DNA of 64,000 bases from an uncultured Methanocellales archaeon (GTDB lineage Archaea; Halobacteriota; JAWCLZ01): the NCBI GenBank assembly GCA_964631075.1, contig CAZVYP010000001.1:26647-90646 (forward strand). The letters run 5' to 3'. Both the position numbers and the translations under genes were made by a program. The notes under the pieces are model-generated. The model was not told where the DNA came from. It saw only the letters and a program-made list of their open reading frames with translations, and ran no database searches. Below, in pieces: positions 10,270 through 26,639 of the stretch (the first letter of the stretch is position 1; the number at the start of each line of letters is the position of its first letter).

Positions 10270-11283
10270 ATGGGAGTTGACCTCGGAGACCTGATCGAGC
10301 GCAGAGAAATAGAGCTGAATGAACTCGCGAATCGCATCGTAGCGATTGACGCCTACAATACCCTGTATCAATTCCTTAGCATAATAAGACAGCCAGATGG
10401 CACACCGCTTACAGACTCAAAAGGCAGAATAACTTCCCACCTCTCAGGACTCATATACCGCACCACCAATTTAATCGAAATAGGAGTCAAGCCGGTTTTC
10501 GTATTCGACGGCAGACCACCCCAGTTCAAAGCGACAACCCTCGAAGAGCGCGCCACAACCAGACAGAGAGCCGAAGAAGCCTGGATCGAAGCAAAAGCCA
10601 CAGTAAGCGAAGAAGCCTTCAAATACGCACAGGCCTCGGCAAGGCTGACGCAGGAAATGATCAGCGAAGCCAAAGCACTCATAGGATATATGGGCTTACC
10701 CGCGATACAGGCACCATCCGAAGGCGAGGCACAGGCATCATTCATGGTGCTCAGCGGCGACGCGGATTACGCAGCCTCACAGGACTACGATTCTCTATTA
10801 TTCGGCTCCCCCAAGCTAGTAAGAAACCTGACAATAACGGGAAAAAGAAAGCTACCGTCAAAGAACATATACATCGACGTCAAGCCAGAAACCATCGAGC
10901 TGCGAGAAATCCTGAAAAAGCTCGAAATCACCAGGGAGCAGCTCATAGACATCGGAGTCTTGATCGGCACAGACTACAACCATGGGATAAAAGGCATAGG
11001 GCCAAAGAAAGCCCTGAAGCTGATCAAAAAGCACGGCACAATAGAAGGCGCGCTGAACGAACTCAAACAGAACATAGACAGCTTCAAAGAGATAAAAGAA
11101 TTCTTCCTCAATCCAGACGTAACCAGCGAGTACGAAATAAAATTCAGGTCACCGGAAAACGAAAAAATCAAACAATTTTTATGCCAAGAACACAGCTTCT
11201 CAGAAGAAAGAATAGACAAAGTGCTCGAAAGACTGAGCATATTTAGAAGCACAATGAAGCAGAAGACACTTGACCAGTGGTAA
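10270..11283 (+). CDS. fen: Flap endonuclease 1 (FEN-1)
   Basis: 337 aa with an N-terminal XPG-N region (MGVDLGDLIERREIELNELANRIVAIDAYNTLYQFL), I-domain (DYDSLLFGSP, GTDYN) and helix-hairpin-helix (GIGPKKALKLIKKHG). Confidence 0.9.
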   Translation: MGVDLGDLIERREIELNELANRIVAIDAYNTLYQFLSIIRQPDGTPLTDSKGRITSHLSGLIYRTTNLIEIGVKPVFVFDGRPPQFKATTLEERATTRQRAEEAWIEAKATVSEEAFKYAQASARLTQEMISEAKALIGYMGLPAIQAPSEGEAQASFMVLSGDADYAASQDYDSLLFGSPKLVRNLTITGKRKLPSKNIYIDVKPETIELREILKKLEITREQLIDIGVLIGTDYNHGIKGIGPKKALKLIKKHGTIEGALNELKQNIDSFKEIKEFFLNPDVTSEYEIKFRSPENEKIKQFLCQEHSFSEERIDKVLERLSIFRSTMKQKTLDQW

Positions 11284-11305
11284 ATAAAAATAATATTATA
11301 ATAAA
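11269..11305. repeat. Direct repeat copy 1 (37 nt) overlapping the fen1 3' end
   Basis: cttgaccagtggtaaataaaaataatattataataaa covers the last four codons and stop of fen1 plus 22 nt downstream. It is identical to 12125-12161. Confidence 0.85.
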
Positions 11306-11414
11306 TTCACAAATATCGATTTGCTCCCTGGCAAATCTGAAAGAAACCAAAACCAAACATATATAACAACAGAGGCAGTTGAGGCTAGCTTCGAAGGCTC
11401 ACTTTCCCGAAGCA

Positions 11415-11432
11415 ACAAAATTTATATATACT
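11415..11432 (+). promoter_or_regulatory. TATA-like box upstream of the toxin-antitoxin cassette
   Basis: aaaatTTATATATAc lies ~35-45 nt upstream of ATG 11464, with GGTGAG RBS-like sequence at 11455-11460. A palindrome agCTTCGAAGg sits just upstream and could be an operator. Confidence 0.3.
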
Positions 11433-11463
11433 TTATATACCAAAATATATCTTTGGTGAGCAT

Positions 11464-11706
11464 TTGAACGATCTCCATTCGCTTCCGGTGTACTTCAAGA
11501 AGCACGCCGTTTTGATGCTTGCCGAGCGCTTTGAGCTGGATTCGCAGGATGCCGAGCATCTTGTAAAAACTGCCAAGTTGCTTAAGCCCATCGAGAAGGA
11601 TGGCGAGATTGGCCTTCTGCAAAGCTGCATTGGCGAGTGCGAGATCAGATTTGTATTTACAATTAGAAAGAAAGTCGTCTGGATAATAACCGTGGAGGAA
11701 ATATGA
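11464..11706 (+). CDS. DUF4258-like small protein, putative RelE/ParE-fold toxin
   Basis: 80 aa. HAVLMLAERFELDSQDAEHLVKTA resembles the DUF4258 core (HAxxRMxERGIxxxEIE). The C-terminus IRFVFTIRKKVVWIITVEEI has the alternating hydrophobic beta pattern of RelE-like toxins. It is translationally coupled (ATGA overlap) to the next gene. Confidence 0.45.
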   Translation: MNDLHSLPVYFKKHAVLMLAERFELDSQDAEHLVKTAKLLKPIEKDGEIGLLQSCIGECEIRFVFTIRKKVVWIITVEEI

Positions 11707-12008
11707 AAACGAAAGTAGTTGAGTGTCCAATCTGTGAATCTCCCATGAGCCGGGAGAGAAGGGAGATCAAAAAGGGAATTTACGCTGAGGTCGAGGTCTG
11801 CCCTAAATGCAATGACGAGTGGATTGATGAGAGGGGCTACGACGAAATCTATCAGCAGCTTTTCACACGCCGAGCCTTTAAAATCGGCGGCAGCCTGGCT
11901 ATTCGCATTCCCCGGGAGATTATTAAAGCGCTCAATCTGCACGAAAATAGCGAGCTCAAGGTCAATCTCAGGGATAATAAAATTGTGATCGAGCCTTTGA
12001 AAACGTGA
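11703..12008 (+). CDS. Putative antitoxin: YgiT/MqsA-type zinc finger fused to AbrB/SpoVT swapped-hairpin DNA-binding domain
   Basis: The N-terminus VECPICESPMSRERREIKKGIYAEVEVCPKCNDEWIDE matches the YgiT-type (MqsA N-domain) CxxC...CxxC zinc finger. The C-terminus FKIGGSLAIRIPREIIKALNLHENSELKVNLRDNKIVIEPL is a canonical AbrB/MazE/SpoVT domain. Confidence 0.55.
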   Translation: MKTKVVECPICESPMSRERREIKKGIYAEVEVCPKCNDEWIDERGYDEIYQQLFTRRAFKIGGSLAIRIPREIIKALNLHENSELKVNLRDNKIVIEPLKT

Positions 12009-12124
12009 GAAAAAAATCCCTCCCAGGGTCACTTGAAATCTTCAATCAGCTATAATAGAAAATCTAACAGCTTCTTAAGTTTATCACGATTTATATAACA
12101 ATAGTCTCCTGCTTTTCTCCGCCT

Positions 12125-12161
12125 CTTGACCAGTGGTAAATAAAAATAATATTATAATAAA
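12125..12161. repeat. Direct repeat copy 2 (37 nt)
   Basis: Identical to 11269-11305. Both copies are followed by ~40 nt of degenerate similarity (ttgctccc..aaatctg) containing short hairpins. Confidence 0.85.
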
Positions 12162-12357
12162 ATTATCCAATACGGCTTGCTCCCGAAAAATCTGCATGCA
12201 ATATTATATGTGGTGAGCAAGCCATATCTGAAAAGGATGAGGCCGCCCTGAGGCGGGTGGGACGAAGTAGGGAAGGGATCACTGCTTTTCTTTTCCAGGG
12301 TTTCGCTGACAAAAAGCTATTAATACTTATGTAACTAAAATCTTTTTTAGCGAGATT

Positions 12358-13173
12358 ATGGTTACAAAAAAAATAAGACTTGGTGATATGGAGCTGAAGT
12401 TGCTGTTCACGCTGGAACAAGAAGGAAAAAACGTGTTTCTAGCAAGTGATGCACACAGAATCCTGAAGTCAACGGATGCCTCTGTGAGAAACGTGCTCTA
12501 CAGGTTGAGAAAAAAAGGCAGAATCGAAGAGATAGAGAAGGGGAAGTATCTGCTGGTGCCCGCGAGAGCCGGTTACAAAGCAGAATGGTCGGAGGTTCCT
12601 TTTCTGCTTGTCCCGCACCTGATAGATAACTACTACCTTGCCTTCTGGTCGGCTCTTAACTACTGGGGCATGACAGAGCAGTCTCCTCGCTCGGTGTTCG
12701 TTGCGACAACGAAGAGAAAAAGAGATTTAACCTACGGAGACACAAAATTTGAGTTCGTGACGCTTGCAAAAAAAAAGTTCTTCGGATTCGTGGAGGAAAA
12801 AACTAATGGAGGCAAATTCAACATCTCTTCAAGAGAGAAAACAGTTGTAGATTGCTTGCTGTATCCAAAGTACTCCGGTGGGCTGGACGAAGCGGTAAAA
12901 GGAATATGGAGGGGAAGAAAAGAGCTGGACTTCGAAAAAATGCTGGAGTACTCGAAAAAGATGGGAGTAGAAGTGGTAACCAGAAGGCTGGGATATATAC
13001 TGGAATTGCTGAAAATTGAAAATAAGATAAGTTCAAAGATAGCCTCTGGCAAATTCAAAGGATATATGTGGCTTGACCCATTGGGAACCAAGAAGCCTAT
13101 AGAATATTCAAAGAAGTTCGGGCTTGCGATAAACCGAACAAGCGAAGAGCTAAAAAGCTGGATGGAGCATTAG
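12358..13173 (+). CDS. AbiEi-family (type IV TA) antitoxin / wHTH transcriptional regulator
   Basis: 271 aa. N-terminal wHTH with RLRKKGRIEEIEKGKYLLVP, typical of the AbiEi_4 antitoxin N-domain. The C-terminal domain is consistent with AbiEi. It is followed 2 nt later by an AbiEii fragment. Confidence 0.65.
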   Translation: MVTKKIRLGDMELKLLFTLEQEGKNVFLASDAHRILKSTDASVRNVLYRLRKKGRIEEIEKGKYLLVPARAGYKAEWSEVPFLLVPHLIDNYYLAFWSALNYWGMTEQSPRSVFVATTKRKRDLTYGDTKFEFVTLAKKKFFGFVEEKTNGGKFNISSREKTVVDCLLYPKYSGGLDEAVKGIWRGRKELDFEKMLEYSKKMGVEVVTRRLGYILELLKIENKISSKIASGKFKGYMWLDPLGTKKPIEYSKKFGLAINRTSEELKSWMEH

Positions 13174-13174
13174 G

Positions 13175-13552
13175 ATGAACGCTGACGATTTAAGAAGACT
13201 TGCGAGAAGAACCGGTTTTGACGCTGGAACTCTTGAGAAAGACTATGCTCTAACATGGCTGCTCAGCGGCATTTACTCAGAGGATTCCAAGCTGAGAGAC
13301 ATCCTGATTTTCAAGGGAGGCACTGCGATCAGAAAGGTTTACTTTCCAGAGTGGCGACTCTCAGAAGATCTGGACTTTACCATCACGCAGAAGGTAACGC
13401 CGGAAACTGTGAGACAGAGTTTTGAGCAGGTTTTTCCGCTGCTAAAAGATACCAGCAAAATTGCCTACTCTCTCAGCTCCTTCAATTACAGCAAACACGC
13501 AATTTTCGCGGATGTTCAGTTTCTTGGTCTGGCGGCTGATGAAGGAAAATGA
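13175..13552 (+). pseudogene. AbiEii/AbiGii (DUF1814) nucleotidyltransferase toxin, truncated to the N-terminal 125 aa
   Basis: LEKDYALTWLLSGIYS ... LIFKGGTAIRKVYFPEWRLSEDLDFT matches the conserved N-terminal nucleotidyltransferase region of AbiEii toxins. Full-length proteins are ~250-300 aa. This one stops after 125 aa, and the downstream space is occupied by a convergent gene. Confidence 0.55.
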
Positions 13553-13570
13553 CTTAGTTCTTCATCTTGA

Positions 13571-14608
13571 TTATTTTTCGGTGAGAATTCGCATATCTGC
13601 GTCTTGGAAGTGTCGAAAGGCTTTCTTGGCGTATTTTTTGTCCATTCTCAGCGCATAAATCTGCAGCGCCTTCAGAGCAGCTGATCCGCCAATTTCTTCA
13701 TCGAATGACATCTGGATGGTCCATCCAGTACTTCGCAGATAATCGGTGCCTGTCACCAGGTCTTCCTCCTTCACTCCTTTCTGTGGAATACGCTCGCAAG
13801 AGATTCCGAACTCTGATAAAATCCTGAAAACCGTATCGTTAAGGAAAGACCAGATTGCCAGTGTCTTCTCGCTGCCCCGGTTGGTAAGGAAGGTTCTGGC
13901 ATCAATCATTAGAGGTGAGCTCTTCTCTTTCTCGAATTTGCCGTAGTTTCCGAGTATCCACAGAAACCTCAAAATATGTGTTCTCACTTTCTCAAGTTTA
14001 TGATGTTGACCGAACGTGTCGGCATCTCGAAATCCGAGTGAAGAAAACTGCAAGGTTGACAGCAGCCTGTGAACTGCGCTGAAAGCCTCGGTCTCTTCTT
14101 CGGTGAATTGCAGTTTCTCTGGAAAGTCGACGATCTTCTTCTTGGTTATCAATATTCTTGCTGGTTCTGCAATCTCTTCTGGCTTCAGCGAAGCACGAGT
14201 CGCCTCCAGGCGATTTATTCCCTCAAAAGGTTCTACAAAAGCGTGATAGTCATCTTTAGAAATGGGCGCGCCAAGCTTTTCTTCTATAGTCTTTCGATTC
14301 CAGGCACCGGCCGTTGCTTTCAAAATGTCACATGGAAATCGCGAACAATAAGCACAATTTGCCACTCCACTCCTGTCCACGCATTGCCGTATCAAACATT
14401 TTCGATTAGGCAGCTTAGATCCTTTGGGAATTTTCGAATCTGGAGTCAGGCATGTCACGCACGGCGTCTTAATCGGCATGTATCCTAAAATCGCCTTGGC
14501 GTTGTTTCTGTAATGTTCAAATTCCGAGGCAGTCATGCTCTTCCTTGGATAAGGTCCCCAGGGACATCTACCGCAATCTATGCCGCATTTAGAAACGAGC
14601 TTTGCCAC
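13571..14608 (-). CDS. DUF3795-like Cys-rich (putative Zn-binding) protein with uncharacterized C-terminal domain
   Basis: N-terminus CGIDCGRCPW ... CVTC ... CLIRQC ... CAYCSRFPC fits the DUF3795 cysteine pattern. The remaining ~190 aa have no recognisable motifs. Confidence 0.5.
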   Translation of the reverse strand: MAKLVSKCGIDCGRCPWGPYPRKSMTASEFEHYRNNAKAILGYMPIKTPCVTCLTPDSKIPKGSKLPNRKCLIRQCVDRSGVANCAYCSRFPCDILKATAGAWNRKTIEEKLGAPISKDDYHAFVEPFEGINRLEATRASLKPEEIAEPARILITKKKIVDFPEKLQFTEEETEAFSAVHRLLSTLQFSSLGFRDADTFGQHHKLEKVRTHILRFLWILGNYGKFEKEKSSPLMIDARTFLTNRGSEKTLAIWSFLNDTVFRILSEFGISCERIPQKGVKEEDLVTGTDYLRSTGWTIQMSFDEEIGGSAALKALQIYALRMDKKYAKKAFRHFQDADMRILTEK

Positions 14609-14754
14609 TGGTTAACCTCCAAAATAACAAATGTGGAATGACATAAATAAGGACTTCTCATGACAAATCCTTTACGTGTAATACTAAGATTTGTCCTTTG
14701 GGTAATGATAAATACATTTAAAAAAAGATGCGATACTGAGATAGCCTGAAAAGG

Positions 14755-15117
14755 ATGGTGGAATCGATGAAATTCTATTCAGAACGGGAAATGAAGAGTC
14801 TGAGGCTGGAGCTTGAGAAGAGAGTTTTACAATGGCCTCAGGTTAGCACCAAGAAGATGTTTGGCTGTCCCTGCTATCAGGCAGATCGAAGGATCTTTGT
14901 TTTTCTGGTTACTGATGGTATTGTGATCACTCAAATAAGTCAGGCTGACAGAGAGACGCTATCCCGTCAGCATCAGACCAGTTTTTTCCAGGCGGGCAAA
15001 AAAATTATTCAGAGCTGGTTGAAGGTCTTTATTAAGAACAAGGCAGAGCTTGACCAGATCATGCCATTTATTAGAAAAAGCTATGAGTCAGCACTTATCC
15101 TTACATCAGCAAAATAA
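14755..15117 (+). CDS. Hypothetical protein (TfoX_N/YjbR-like fold?)
   Basis: 120 aa. KKMFGCPCYQADRRIFVFLVTDGIVI loosely resembles the MFGG..y..g..Fa.i..d.L pattern of TfoX-N/YjbR-family proteins. Confidence 0.3.
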   Translation: MVESMKFYSEREMKSLRLELEKRVLQWPQVSTKKMFGCPCYQADRRIFVFLVTDGIVITQISQADRETLSRQHQTSFFQAGKKIIQSWLKVFIKNKAELDQIMPFIRKSYESALILTSAK

Positions 15118-15215
15118 TTCACTTCGAAAGAGAAAAGCCATTTTTCGAGTTTGATTTTGAATAATTTTGCCAGACCACAATTTATATTACTCAGTAAAGT
15201 AAACTATACTTTGTA

Positions 15216-15884
15216 ATGAAAAGAGGTTTGAAGTTGATAGAGCTCACTCCCGAGGGAAGAATCGTGGCAGCATTGATCGGAGGGGCTTTGAGCTATGGCA
15301 AATTAAAAGCTAAAACTAGCTTGAGCGACCGGTGGCTCTCCATCAAGTTAAAAGAACTGACTTCGGTCGGAGTAATAGAATATAGAGGCAATGGTTATCA
15401 GCTTATGAATCCTGCTGATGTTCTTGGAGATCCGGTTTTTGCAAAATATGTGGAGGGAAGCGTTCAGTTAAAGACAAAGGCAAAATTAATTGCCGAGGAG
15501 CTGAGCGTCGACGAGCAGGTTTGCGCTGTGATACTCTTTGGCAGTCTGGCGAAGGGAAAGGCTACTGAGGAAAGCGATGTCGACCTGGTTGTGGTCACGG
15601 AGATGGATGTCGAGGAAAAGTTGAACAGGGTGATTTATAATCTTATGTTCAAGTACGACGTGGCAGTTGAGGCAGTTTTCCTGACAGTTGAAGATCTGAT
15701 AATAAATCTTCAGTCCAGAACTGCCTTTTCTTTCGGGATGCTTGAAGCTTATGAGGTGCTGTATGATAAAATTGGAATAGAGTACCTCCTCCGTGTAAAG
15801 CAAAGAGAACTTCGAGAGAACTGGACTTATGACGAAGAGGCCGCGGCATGGATTCAAAAGAGGCTAATACCTACTTGCAGATAG
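15216..15884 (+). CDS. wHTH + minimal nucleotidyltransferase (MNT) protein, antitoxin-like partner of HEPN
   Basis: N-terminal winged-helix-like segment, then the MNT signature ILFGSLAKGKATEESDVDLVVV (GS...D.D). Overlaps the downstream HEPN gene by 37 nt. Confidence 0.65.
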   Translation: MKRGLKLIELTPEGRIVAALIGGALSYGKLKAKTSLSDRWLSIKLKELTSVGVIEYRGNGYQLMNPADVLGDPVFAKYVEGSVQLKTKAKLIAEELSVDEQVCAVILFGSLAKGKATEESDVDLVVVTEMDVEEKLNRVIYNLMFKYDVAVEAVFLTVEDLIINLQSRTAFSFGMLEAYEVLYDKIGIEYLLRVKQRELRENWTYDEEAAAWIQKRLIPTCR

Positions 15885-16279
15885 CGCTGGATCAGTTGAA
15901 AGATGCTGAACTGGCGTTTAAAAATGAGAGGTATGCTCTCTGTGTGCTCCTGGCGGCTTTATCTGCAGAGAATGCAACTTCTGCCTGGCTTATAGTGCTG
16001 GGAGCCAAACCTAGCAAGAAACATAGAAATTCCCTGGTATTGAAAAGACTGGCGGAGAGCATTAACGAGAAGCTGAAGGAAGGATTGATGGAAGCGATCA
16101 GATCCATGGAAGAGCTTGAACCGCATGTTACTAAAGCCAGATATCCGATTCGCCATGACTTAGAACTTCTCCCACCCAGCAAATTTTACACAAAAGAAAA
16201 AGCAGCAGAAAGCTTAGCTAAAGCAGAATATGTGGTTGAGCTTGTAAAACAGAGAGTTCACACAGATTTTAAAAGCTGA
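15848..16279 (+). CDS. HEPN-domain protein (toxin-like partner of MNT)
   Basis: 143-aa helical protein. The N-terminus YLQIALDQLKDAELAFKNERYALCVLLAALSAENATSA is typical of HEPN. KARYPIRH is a candidate Rx4-6H motif. Confidence 0.6.
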   Translation: MDSKEANTYLQIALDQLKDAELAFKNERYALCVLLAALSAENATSAWLIVLGAKPSKKHRNSLVLKRLAESINEKLKEGLMEAIRSMEELEPHVTKARYPIRHDLELLPPSKFYTKEKAAESLAKAEYVVELVKQRVHTDFKS

Positions 16280-16459
16280 ATTAGAAGCCTCTTCATCCTA
16301 GAAAGATTGAGAAAAATTAATAAATAAGTAAAATATTTCCAATAAATTTAAATATTTATATAGACAATTGTAATATTATGCCAAAAAGACATAATTATTT
16401 GGTAATTATCATAATCATCTTTGTTCTGATAGATTTGTCTAACTTGCCTGGGAGACATT

Positions 16460-17215
16460 ATGGCAAATATGCAAGAACGTGTTAAGTCTGGAATTGAGGG
16501 CTTTGATGAGATCTGCGGTGGTGGTTTGATCAGGAACAGGAGCTACCTTATCGCAAGCGGAAGTGGTGCCGGCAAGACCATATTCGGAGTTCAATTTCTT
16601 TACAACGGTATTGTGCATTATGATGAAAATGGAATTTTTGTTGCCACTGAAGAGCGACCCGAGCAGATCAGAAAAGATATGCTAAACTTCGGCTGGGACC
16701 TAAAAAAGCTTGAAGAAGATAAGAAGTTCGCGATAATAGATGCCTCTGCAACAAAAATCGGAGTACCGTCACAGGAGCGCTATGTCGATGTTCGCCACTC
16801 TGATCTGGGATCGATGCTCGATCAGATAGTAAATGTTCAGGAGGAAACTAATGCAATGCGCATCGTTGTGGATTCAACAACTGCGATCGGGTTTTCCCTG
16901 AATAATGATGCCACGAGTATTCGACTGGGCATGTTGAAGCTTGGTGCAACACTCGGCATGCTGGGTTTGACATCGATCCTGATTTGCGAGGTATTGGATG
17001 AGAGACGTCCAAGCAGATTCGGGGTAGAGCAGTTCGTTACTGAAGGCACCATTGTGATGTATAACCACAGAACTGAAAACGGACGCGTGCGAAGCATTGA
17101 GATATTCAAAATGCGAGGCTCAGACCATAGCAAAAAGGTCCACCCATACGAGATCACATCTCAGGGAATCGTAGTGCACCCGCGCGATGAGAGACATATC
17201 TTAAAGGAGGGTTAA
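16460..17215 (+). CDS. KaiC-like single-domain RecA-superfamily ATPase
   Basis: GIEGFDEICGGGLIRNRSYLIASGSGAGKT (Walker A), Walker B ...IVVDS, typical of archaeal KaiC/RadA-like ATPases. Confidence 0.8.
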   Translation: MANMQERVKSGIEGFDEICGGGLIRNRSYLIASGSGAGKTIFGVQFLYNGIVHYDENGIFVATEERPEQIRKDMLNFGWDLKKLEEDKKFAIIDASATKIGVPSQERYVDVRHSDLGSMLDQIVNVQEETNAMRIVVDSTTAIGFSLNNDATSIRLGMLKLGATLGMLGLTSILICEVLDERRPSRFGVEQFVTEGTIVMYNHRTENGRVRSIEIFKMRGSDHSKKVHPYEITSQGIVVHPRDERHILKEG

Positions 17216-22813: not shown

Positions 22814-23056
22814 TTGGCCAAGAAGTTTAGCGTGCTCGACCACGAATATGTTCCTAAACATGAAATATTAAGTGAGAAAGAGATTGATGAGATTTTGAAG
22901 AGATATCAATGTGAAAAGGGTCAGCTCCCCCTTATTCGAACGAGTGATCCTGCCGTGAAGGAGATAGGAGCCAAAAGTGGAGATGTGATAAAGATAACAA
23001 GAAAAAGCCTGACTGCAGGCAAAGCGATTGCTTATCGCTATGTGGTTGAGGCATAG
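22814..23056 (+). CDS. rpoH: DNA-directed RNA polymerase subunit H (Rpo5)
   Basis: 80-aa protein with the typical RpoH sequence ([22 protein letters not shown]...) at the head of the rpo operon. Confidence 0.9.
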
Positions 23057-23066
23057 AGGTGTAATA

Positions 23067-26000
23067 ATGCTGAATAGAAGGATTCTGGCAGAATCATACT
23101 TCACCAGAGCTAAGATTTCCCAGCACCACGTTGATTCATTCAATGCCTTCATCGACTATGGCTTGCAGAAGGTAATTGACGAGCAGGAGAAAATTGGCAC
23201 AGATATAGCCGAAGATAATATTGCTGGCATTGATGAGGGAGTACACATAAAGCTTGGCAAAATAAGCGTTGGCAAGCCTGTTGTCAGAGAGGCAGACGGC
23301 TCAGTTGAGCCGCTTTATCCCTCTGAAGCAAGGCTCAGAAACATCACTTATGCTGCGCCGATTTATTTGCAGATGAGCATAGTTCGCGGCAACAGCGAGA
23401 CCGAGCCCCAGGATGTTGAAATTGGAATGCTCCCAATAATGGTCTATTCGAGAGTGTGCAATCTATCTGGTTTATCCGCGCAGGAATTGACAGAGCAGGG
23501 CGAAGACCCCATGGATCCCGGCGGCTATTTTATTATCAACGGCACCGAGCGCGTGGTAATGAGCTTGGAAGACCTCGCGCCCAACAAGATTCTGGTGGAG
23601 TACAACGAGCGCTACGGGGAGAAAATTGAGGTGGCGAAGGTGTTTTCGCAAAGGCGAGGCTATAGAGCGCTTGTAATAGTCGAGCGCGGCAGAAATTCTA
23701 TTCTTGAGGTTTCATTCCCTTCCATTGCAGGCAGAATTAATTTCATCACCCTCGTTCGCGCTCTGGGTCTTGAGAGCGACAAGGACATTGTCGGAGCGGT
23801 CAGCGATGACCCCGAGATAGTGAAGTTCATGCTTGAGAACATAGAAGAAGCTGAAGTCGAAACTGCTGAGGAGGCGCTGGATAAGATCGGGAAGCTCGTG
23901 GCGACCGGTCAGGCAAGGGAGTACCAGAAGAAGCGGGCAAATTATATTCTGGATCGCTATCTGCTACCGCATCTCGGCAATGACGAGTCAAGCCGGCTCG
24001 CAAAAGGCCATTACCTGGGAAGAATGGCTGAAGCGTGCTTCGAGCTTGCACTTGGAAGGAGAGGAGAGGATGACAAGGATCACTATTCCAACAAGCGCAT
24101 CAAACTAGCGGGCGATCTGATGGAGGACCTGTTCAGAGTTTCCTTCAACCGCCTGACACAAGATATTAAGTACCAGCTTGAGAGAGCTAGCATGCGCAAC
24201 AGAGAGCTAAACGTACTCACCGCAGTCAGAGCGGATGTCTTGACCGAGAGGCTTACCCATCCCCTCGCAACCGGCAACTGGGTTGGCGGCAGGACAGGTG
24301 TCTCTCAGCTTCTCGACAGGATAGATCATATGGCCATGCTTTCGCATCTGCGAAGGGTAATTTCACCGCTATCAAGGGCTCAGCCGCATTTCGAGGCACG
24401 AGACCTGCATCCCACTCAGTGGGGCAGAATATGCCCGGCTGAAACTCCTGAAGGTCCCAATTGCGGGCTTGTGAAGAACTTCGCCCAGCTCGTAGAACTC
24501 TCAACAGGGCTTGAGAACCAGGAAGAGATCAAAGCTGTTCTAAATCTGCTTGGAGTGCAGCCTATCGGCAAGGAACACGGAAGTAAGTATAAGGAAGAGG
24601 ATTCAAAAGGAGAGTATTTGTTTAGCTTAAAACTGGATTATGAGCAGCATCTGCAAGACGGTCCCGTCAGCCTTGCCATTAAAACTGCTTTTGAAAGTAA
24701 TAAATCACCCCTGACAGCTAGCGCTCAGATATCTCAAAAAGGTGCAAAGAACTGGATAATAAATGATGGAAATAAAAGATATTTAGTCGAAGATGCTAGC
24801 ACTCAACTAAACATATATGAGATAGGCAAAGCAAGGGTTTTTGTAAATGGCGCGCTTGTTGGCTATCACGACAAGCCCAGAGAGCTAACGAGAGAGCTCA
24901 GGGGCAAGCGGAGGAGCGGAGCTCTGCCTATTCAGGTTAATGTGGCATTCTTTGAGCGGACGAAAGAAGTTGTGATAAACTCTGACAGCGGGAGAGCCAG
25001 AAGACCTCTCATTGTTGTCGAGAACGGCAAGACCAAGGTTATAGACATCGATCTTGAGCGCCTGATGAAAAAAGAAATTACTTTTGAAGATATTGTCAGA
25101 CAGGGGTTAATAGAATATCTTGATCCCGATGAAGAGGAGAATGCCTTTATCGCAGTTAGGGAAGAGGATATAAAGCAGGAGCATACTCATCTTGAGATCG
25201 ACCCCTCGCTGGTGCTTGGCATCTGCGCTGGAATGGTGCCTTATCCCGAGCATAATGCTTCACCCAGAAATACGATGGGTGCCGGAATGATCAAGCAATC
25301 GCTTGGAATGAGCACCGCTAACTGGAGGCTCAGACCTGATACTCGATCGCACATGCTGCACTATCCACAGCTTGCGATTGTGAGAACTCAAACCAATGAT
25401 GCAATAAAGTTTGATTCAAGACCTGCGGGGCAGAATTTCGCAGTTGCTGTGCTATCGTATGAAGGTTATAACATTGAAGATGCCCTGGTGATAAACAGAG
25501 GCTCTATTGAGCGCGGGCTTGGAAGAAGCCACTTCTTCAGGACCTACGAGGGTGAGGAGAGACGCTACCCTGGCGGCCAGGAAGACTTGTTCGAAGTACC
25601 GGACGCAGAAGTCAGAGGCGCCAGGGGCGCGGAGGCTTATGCCTATCTGGATGAAGATGGTCTGGTTAATCCTGAAACAGATGTCGGGCCGAACGATGTG
25701 CTTATCGGCAAGACGAGTCCACCCCGCTTCCTTGAAGAGCCGACTGACCTCGGAGGTATTACACCACAGGGTAGAAGGGAGACCTCGGTTACAATGCGCT
25801 CCAATGAGAAGGGTATCGTTGATACTGTGATTTTGACGGAAGGAGAGAACGGATCGAGACTTGTGAAAGTGCGCACGAGGGATCAGAGAATACCCGAGCT
25901 TGGAGACAAATTTGCCTCCCGTCACGGGCAGAAAGGGGTTGTTGGACTTATCGCATCGCAGGAGGATTTACCGTTCACGGAGCAGGGCATTGTTCCGGAT

Positions 26001-26639
26001 CTTGTGATTAACCCCCATGCAATTCCATCACGCATGACAGTCGGACACGTGCTTGAGATGATAGGTGGCAAGGTTGGCGTATTTGAAGGTAGAAGAATAG
26101 ATGCAACTGCCTTCTCTGCGGAGAAGGAAGAGGATATGAGAAGGGCTCTGATGAAATTTGGCTTCTCTCATACAGGCAGAGAGATAATGTATGACGGTGT
26201 TACCGGTGAGAGAATTGAGGCAGATATTTTCGTTGGAGTGATCTATTATCAGAAGCTGTATCACATGGTCGCAAGTAAACTGCACGCGAGGTCACGAGGA
26301 CCTGTCCAGGTTCTTACCAGACAGCCTACCGAGGGCAGAGCACGTGAAGGTGGTTTGAGATTTGGAGAGATGGAGAGAGATGTGCTTGTCGGGCATGGTG
26401 CAGCTCTGGCTTTAAAGGAAAGATTGCTTGACGAAAGCGATAAGGTGGTGGAGCTTATCTGCAACCACTGCGGCATGGTGGCAACTCACGATAAAAGAAG
26501 GAATTTCACCTACTGCCCGAGCTGTGGCGCAGAAACAGATATATACCCGGTTGAGATGAGCTATGCCTTCAAGCTCCTTCTGGATGAGATGAAGGCACTC
26601 GGAATTGCTCCACGATTAGAACTTACAGATGCGGTGTAG
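23067..26639 (+). CDS. rpoB: DNA-directed RNA polymerase subunit B, unsplit (B''+B' in one ORF)
   Basis: One continuous frame spans B''-type N-terminal motifs through B'-type C-terminal motifs ([27 protein letters not shown]-terminal CxxC...CxxC zinc ribbon). Start placed at ATG 23067 (MLNRRIL) after a GAGGTG RBS, not at the ORF-track start 23028. Confidence 0.9.

Follow-up and report, generated by a model that had tools for sequence, protein, structure and literature searches.

We analysed a 64,000-nt stretch of DNA from an uncultured Methanocellales archaeon (GenBank assembly GCA_964631075.1, contig CAZVYP010000001.1, positions 26,647 to 90,646 of the forward strand; hereafter the window) and found in it a two-gene AbiE locus from which much of the toxin gene is missing. 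AbiE is an abortive-infection toxin-antitoxin (TA) system, formerly classed as Type IV and now proposed as Type VII. The antitoxin gene, abiEi, is whole, while the toxin gene, abiEii, has lost its back 55%. The locus is very probably a decayed AbiE module, with an intact antitoxin and a truncated toxin, and an ordinary example of its kind. Inactivation of the toxin by deletion or replacement, with the antitoxin kept, had been suggested in an earlier note on this DNA and is supported by our results: the C-terminal half of the toxin is gone, and its relatives are full length.

abiEi was found immediately upstream of the AbiEii/DUF1814 gene in a one-operon layout, and the order was identical in all related loci. 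The earlier claim of a complete 271-aa AbiEi was borne out, since the PADLOC profile PDLC02267 was covered end to end (positions 2-251 of 252, E = 7e-81). In Pfam searches, the N-terminal winged helix matched PF13338 (AbiEi_4; residues 15-67, 31.7 bits against a cut-off of 25, E = 1.7e-7) and the C-terminal antitoxicity domain matched PF09407 (AbiEi_1; residues 86-216, 30.2 bits against 22.2, E = 6e-7). Both matches exceed the curated cut-offs, and the family is COG5340. The length of 271 aa is that of 25 of the 30 relatives, to which the protein is 59-73% identical, and abiEi was an intact open reading frame (ORF) of 267-274 codons in all 30 translated loci. At near-invariant columns it showed two deviations out of 110, compared with 0-5 in copies that stand beside intact toxins.

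The toxin remnant (hereafter the stub) is an ORF of 125 aa on the plus strand (13175-13552), and its ATG at 13175 lies one base past the abiEi TAG codon (13171-13173). It matched Pfam AbiEii (PF08843, E = 1.1e-11) and the PADLOC AbiEii profile PDLC02304 (E = 5e-33), the latter only over positions 4-117 of 260. The motif KGGTAIRKVYFPEWRLSEDLDFT, which the earlier note had quoted, was found at residues 47-69. Alignment with full-length relatives, as the note had advised, mapped the truncation point: homology runs through ADVQFLG, ending at Gly118 (nt 13526-13528), and breaks at 13528/13529. Past Gly118 the full-length relatives continue with PLxFKNRIAHDISLKEK, whereas the window reads LAADEGK followed by a stop, a tail with no similarity to the relatives' sequence at this position. 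The statement that about 125 aa of AbiEii are kept therefore stands insofar as only the N-terminal part is present, but just codons 1-118 derive from AbiEii and the last seven are unrelated. Compared with the best representative, the full-length 262-aa protein P0121, the stub was 75% identical over residues 1-118, and it showed no deviation at 51 near-invariant columns.

We then looked for remnants of the missing half in other frames. Searches of the 64-kb window by tblastn with seven relatives gave no toxin C-terminal half at E values up to 10, and neither did tblastn with a full-length protein rebuilt from a Methanoperedens gene split by an insertion sequence (IS). A profile hidden Markov model (HMM) built on residues 119-262 also found nothing in the six frames of the window (best E = 4.3); the corresponding N-terminal HMM recovered the stub at E = 3e-41. 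A frameshift or sequencing error hiding an in-frame remainder was excluded, as no C-terminal half is present in any frame of the window.

The space where the 3' half of the toxin gene would lie is filled by a convergent DUF3795 gene, as had been noted before. Its product matched PF12675, a Cys-rich domain, over residues 5-97 (42.2 bits against a cut-off of 22.6, E = 1.2e-10). It has 442 homologues; the listed ones are mostly 343-348 aa long and 65-76% identical at 100% coverage, so the gene is complete at its C-terminus. Elsewhere these homologues sit in ordinary, unrelated chromosomal contexts. In the ORF map, 18 nt separate the stop of the stub from the stop of the DUF3795 gene. The opposite strand of the seven tail codons contains a short T-run that follows the DUF3795 gene, and the tail would thus be an antisense reading of the 3' flank of that gene. 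The deletion or replacement has its right-hand end within a stretch of 42 nt that follows the last AbiEii-derived base and extends up to the stop codon of DUF3795. The coordinates are collected in Table 1.

Table 1. Features of the AbiE locus and its right-hand neighbour (positions in the window)
Feature	Position	Strand	Basis or description
abiE promoter/operator region (putative)	12308..12357	+	TATA-like TATTAATA, TGTAAC, inverted repeat up to the start codon
abiEi, 271 aa, antitoxin/autorepressor (N-terminal winged helix-turn-helix and C-terminal antitoxicity domain)	12358..13173	+	Intact ORF; Pfam and PADLOC matches
abiEii 5' remnant, codons 1-118	13175..13528	+	PADLOC and Pfam matches; alignment with relatives
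Unrelated 7-codon tail LAADEGK and TGA stop	13529..13552	+	Joined at the break; no AbiEii similarity
Junction interval, 42 nt	13529..13570	.	Last AbiEii-derived base to DUF3795 stop codon
DUF3795 gene, 345 aa, convergent, intact	13571..14608	-	PF12675; not part of AbiE

The usual arrangement in relatives is a toxin of 257-270 aa directly 3' of a 271-aa AbiEi. With one genome taken per species, 67 of 79 evaluable genome loci had toxins of 263-284 codons, and 46 of the 57 unique evaluable loci from close metagenomes had 257-270 codons, the other 11 being shortened or interrupted. A first, word-indexed search had returned only proteins shorter than 220 aa, which reflects a length bias of that search; an index-free search gave best representatives of 262 and 244 aa at 70% identity. 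We had considered a conserved short family, the finding that the earlier note had said would refute its reading. It was rejected on the index-free search and the two locus scans, in which full length was the norm, and on a tree. In this tree, built from the first 118 residues, the stubs were polyphyletic and did not form a clade, and their nearest full-length kin differed: L087 for the window (75% identity), L090 and L092 for L088 (84%) and L124 for L005 (68%). The breaks of the short forms fell at codons 66, about 78, 94, 102, 118, 118, 119 and about 215, and their tails were unrelated and 7-62 residues long.

A disrupted toxin was found in about one fifth of the relatives, a sample that is not unbiased, as loci were found via the toxin N-terminus. 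Several toxins carried point disruptions (frameshift, nonsense mutation or internal deletion), and all translated AbiEi copies were intact. This agrees with the suggestion that an orphan antitoxin is a common fate of such modules. Loss of the toxin is safe while loss of the antitoxin is not, and intact AbiEi beside disrupted toxins fits this known asymmetry.

The closest parallels are loci L002, L005, L008, L127 and L167. They belong to the same AbiE subfamily (AbiEi 60-69% and the toxin N-terminal part 50-70% identical to the window) and, like the window, combine an intact 271-aa AbiEi with a toxin disrupted in its first half. The lesions differ in type. In L002, from Ca. Methanoperedens nitroreducens (GCA_030069165.1), an IS was inserted after codon 125 and both toxin halves are still present as separate ORFs of 143 and 159 aa, with the IS terminal inverted repeats visible at both ends, whereas the stub of the window runs on into the DUF3795 3' flank. 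In the other four loci, the toxin stub is followed by unrelated downstream DNA: a MazE-PIN pair in L005, a gene block including an integrase in L008 and other genes in L167. In L008 (JAPMTR010000093.1, 3250-5750), a Methanoperedens metagenome-assembled genome (MAG), the toxin breaks at about codon 78; next come a 203-aa HExxH-type protein and, some 0.7 kb farther on, a 395-aa tyrosine-recombinase-like integrase, an arrangement that points to insertion of a mobile element into the toxin gene. In another Methanoperedens locus, L007 (JAPZAO010000125.1, 4300-6459), the stub runs straight into high-GC, bacterial-looking rhodanese-like and glutathione-S-transferase-like genes; we set it aside and do not count it among the natural truncations, since it is probably a chimeric assembly.

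We next considered what the stub could still do. Motif I (hG[GS]) is present in it as F46 K47 G48 G49 T50, invariant in both alignments (A1 and A2), and so is motif II (the family-specific Arg plus DhD; R61, S63, D65, D67, F68), which is invariant across the family. Neither motif III (C-terminal Lys/Arg) nor motif IV (+DxxD) occurs in the stub or anywhere else in the window; their equivalents in relatives are E168 K169 ... R176 and R180 D181 Y183 D184, respectively. Residues aligned to motifs III and IV of Streptococcus agalactiae AbiEii thus lie at about 169-184 in relatives, past the break. In S. agalactiae AbiEii, K173A and R180A (motif III) and D192A (motif IV) each abolished toxicity, and D192A also lost GTP binding (PMC3985639).

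An AlphaFold model of P0121, with a predicted local distance difference test score (pLDDT) of 97, placed Gly118/Pro119 in a turn between strands 109-117 and 123-131. By this model, the truncation takes away strands 123-131, 141-144 and 156-159 and helices 162-261, which amounts to three of the central-sheet strands and all of the helical C-terminal domain. The model matched MenT3/TglT and MenT4 (PDB 6J7x, 7C46, 6Y56 and 6Y5U) with template modelling (TM) scores of 0.67-0.75 and E values of about 1e-10, which confirms the fold family. The complete fold of this family has two domains and about 260-290 aa, and the window holds 118 homologous residues only; the stub is therefore a fragment of a family member's gene and not a functional member. 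Because motifs III and IV, the three strands and the C-terminal domain are gone, the S. agalactiae mutagenesis leads us to expect that the stub is non-toxic and without nucleotide binding or transfer. It should be catalytically dead and is probably unstable, and the locus should no longer work as a toxin-antitoxin or abortive-infection system.

The antitoxin gene retains its upstream region. About 48 nt 5' of the abiEi ATG aligned without gaps over 25 loci, the window included, with 13 invariant columns. The order is a TATA-like element, TGTAAC and, directly adjoining the ATG, an inverted repeat of 7-8 bp (AAAATCT..AGATTAT). Within the 25 loci, 83.5% of cells paired in the inverted repeat, compared with 29-61% when the partners were slid. 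Covariation in the repeat was not above the shuffle control (65/500), and we dropped it as support, limiting the claim to conservation. The region is likely an archaeal promoter with a predicted AbiEi operator; in S. agalactiae, AbiEi represses its own promoter via inverted repeats (PMC3985639), and by likeness to that system the inverted repeat of the window is probably the operator. With the gene intact and both promoter and inverted repeat conserved, abiEi is probably still expressed and self-repressing. The stub, which starts 1 nt past the abiEi stop, is probably co-transcribed with it and translated into a 125-aa fragment. Farther 5' than about 50 nt, similarity between the loci vanished abruptly, and this position therefore marks the left edge of a compact mobile AbiE cassette. 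The closest AbiE relatives come from Ca. Methanoperedens and sediment metagenomes, which argues that the cassette moves horizontally.

The genomic context was examined around fen1, the gene upstream of the locus. The best named matches of FEN1 are Methanocellales MAGs (76%). In its nearest relatives (L172-L175, 76-78%), the pair of a 240-aa gene and fen1 is conserved and is followed, 4-38 nt after fen1, by a convergent branched-chain-type ABC-transporter operon. In a comparison over 11284-16279, the window has a 5.2-kb islet of TA cassettes where the relatives have this operon, and we therefore regard the site after fen1 as a synteny break or an insertion hot spot. The islet contains a DUF4258 and MazE-like pair, abiEi with the stub, the DUF3795 gene, a TfoX_N-like gene and an MNT-HEPN pair; kaiC and core genes lie beyond it. 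No AbiE or DUF3795 gene was found after fen1 in the nearest fen1 relatives (76-82%). We tried to reconstruct the ancestral site from close relatives, and this failed: all four window proteins tested were singleton 90% clusters, the fen1 relatives lack AbiE at this site and the DUF3795 contexts are unrelated.

At the left end of the islet, a perfect 37-nt direct repeat was found at 11269-11305 and 12125-12161 (none expected by chance). At 83% identity the repeat extends to about 60 nt, and its first copy holds the last four fen1 codons and the stop. Between the copies lies a mini-cassette of about 0.85 kb (11306-12124), in which a DUF4258-like ORF (11464-11706) overlaps an ORF for a Zn-ribbon and MazE/AbrB antitoxin-like protein (11703-12008). 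There is no integrase near it, and the arrangement looks like that of a tiny TA cassette integrated site-specifically at the fen1 3' end. The interval from the second repeat copy to the abiE promoter contains a GC-rich hairpin (GGCCGCC CTGA GGCGGG, 12238-12262), which could be a terminator or a cassette-end structure. To the right of the DUF3795 gene, the TfoX_N-like ORF (120 aa, 14755-15117) stayed below the Pfam cut-off, and two overlapping, intact-looking genes (15216-15884 and 15848-16279) encode an N-terminally extended minimal nucleotidyltransferase and a HEPN protein, a pair of the MNT-HEPN toxin-antitoxin type. Farther along, RNA polymerase subunit B is a single ORF of 1203 aa (23028-26639) with Rpb2 domains 1-7. 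Many methanogens and haloarchaea have this subunit divided into B' and B''.

Taken together, these observations fit the following course of events. A compact cassette of about 1.65 kb (promoter with inverted repeat, abiEi and abiEii) would have been acquired horizontally and placed in a small TA islet downstream of fen1 in a Methanocellales-like archaeon. A deletion or replacement would have removed abiEii codons 119-262, so that codon 118 now adjoins the 3' flank of the resident convergent DUF3795 gene. With motifs I and II, the resulting 125-aa fragment would keep the half of the nucleotidyltransferase site that binds metal. The lack of decay in both AbiEi and the stub means either that the loss happened recently in evolutionary terms or that constraint still acts on what is left.

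The position of the break was not unique to the window. The window (13526-13531), L088 (1285-1290) and L005 (6352-6357) all break no more than about 2 nt from the boundary between the Gly118 and Pro119 codons. These three truncations lie in separate lineages, each closest to a different full-length gene, and the sequences that follow the break in the three loci have nothing in common. Other disruptions lie nearby, namely a frameshift at about codon 121 in L150 and the IS after codon 125 in L002 (6375), and contigs L121 and L156 end at codons 122-123. GGNCC at codons 118/119 is the only such site conserved across the AbiEii subfamily. A real hot spot for breakage or rearrangement at Gly118/Pro119 is, in our estimate, a rather unlikely explanation. 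Its cause could conceivably be mechanical, with a restriction-type cut at GGNCC followed by end-joining. The other five breakpoints examined were not at GGNCC sites, and a restriction-site cause stays speculative. Alternatively the cause could be selective, if a fragment that ends right after strand 109-117 is tolerated or useful. We treat the three cases as a lead and not as a result.

Selection on the fragment is the basis of the first rival explanation that we weighed, in which the N-terminal piece of about 118 residues would be a functional product that binds the AbiEi C-terminal domain, tunes repression or antitoxin availability, or acts as a decoy. The absence of deviations at the stub's near-invariant positions speaks for it, as does the coincidence of the window, L088 and L005 at Gly118/Pro119 despite their different nearest full-length genes. 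Moreover, AbiEi of S. agalactiae contacts the N-terminal domain of its toxin (helix alpha2) and the active-site residues R63 and T65, whose equivalents are kept in the stub; contacts with N126, K128 and Q129 and all those with the C-terminal domain are however lost. The short forms are polyphyletic, with breaks from codon 66 to about 215 and unrelated tails, and 80-85% of relatives are full length. In the model the break falls inside the central beta-sheet rather than at a domain boundary, which makes folding unlikely. We consider a selected fragment improbable on this evidence. Even less probable is a split toxin, whose C-terminal half would be encoded elsewhere in the genome and reassemble with the stub into an active enzyme. 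The separate ORFs that flank the IS in L002 provide a precedent for two halves in one genome, but that split is a plain IS insertion with terminal inverted repeats. The 64-kb window holds no C-terminal half, the cut would run through the beta-sheet of the model, and a split AbiEii is not described in the AbiE literature cited here (PMC3985639 and the S. agalactiae complex study). We regard this explanation as the most far-fetched of those considered.

The junction could also be an assembly chimera, with a full-length abiEii in the real genome and a contig that jumps at 13528/13529. Metagenome assemblies do make such joins, as L007 illustrates. The Logan assembly of run SRR8539650, made with a different assembler, however spans the junction: it covers 12132-16663 of the window at 99.98% identity with one mismatch, and its contig ends at the 37-nt repeat and not at the junction. 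Since the two assemblies may have reads in common, this evidence is strong without being wholly independent. From one side of the junction to the other the GC content stays even at 44-47%, with no composition shift, and archaeal core genes lie on both sides. A chimera is thus very unlikely, though somewhat less so than a split toxin.

Several points weigh against simple decay after a deletion or replacement. The closest available genome has 82% FEN1 identity, too distant for reconstructing the ancestral state of this exact site or the size, mechanism and date of the deletion. Expression of abiEi and of the stub is a prediction. The zero decay of the stub would be equally expected if the fragment were under selection, and three lineages at Gly118/Pro119 are not what a simple random deletion predicts.

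We compared the locus with known systems. AbiE of S. agalactiae and Lactococcus (PMC3985639, 10.64898/2026.01.19.700257, PDB 9HLO) likewise has two genes in one operon, an antitoxin gene and then a toxin gene whose start adjoins the antitoxin stop. Its AbiEi shares the winged helix-turn-helix, the C-terminal antitoxicity domain and the promoter inverted repeat, and its toxin is a DUF1814 nucleotidyltransferase of the pol-beta type with motif I (GG) and motif II (R..S/T.D.D). P0121 aligned to chain B of 9HLO over residues 8-200 (E = 4e-8). In contrast to these systems, the host of the window is archaeal and the toxin is cut after residue 118, without motifs III and IV and the C-terminal domain, so that it should have lost the toxic activity that defines the system. 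The bacterial AbiE proteins are of low sequence identity to those of the window, and a search by sequence found no PDB relative of the window AbiEi. The MenAT/TglT-TakA systems of Mycobacterium tuberculosis (MenT3 Rv1045, MenT4 Rv2826c) have the same DUF1814 toxin fold as the P0121 model, and their phospho-acceptor position, a Ser/Thr in motif II, is also present in the stub (S63). Unlike the window fragment, the MenT toxins are complete tRNA-modifying enzymes, and identity is 13-17%.

As a general rule, the toxins of toxin-antitoxin and abortive-infection modules are lost first and the antitoxin persists. In orphan antitoxins, or anti-addiction modules, an antitoxin kept after toxin loss could neutralise related toxins on mobile elements. 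AbiEi of the window may be useful in this way, as a neutraliser of incoming AbiE toxins, or it may simply not have decayed yet. A recent remnant that has not yet decayed fits the data as well as an AbiEi kept by selection, or 'domesticated'.

We suggest that the locus be annotated as abiEi followed by an abiEii pseudogene fragment, and that it not be counted as an active AbiE defence in this archaeon. Beyond annotation its importance is small, the recurrent break at Gly118/Pro119 being the only lead with wider interest. The AbiE cassette of these archaea is a compact mobile unit with its left edge about 50 nt upstream of abiEi, and the window provides one clean archaeal example of toxin-first loss, with parallels in Methanoperedens and in sediment metagenomes.

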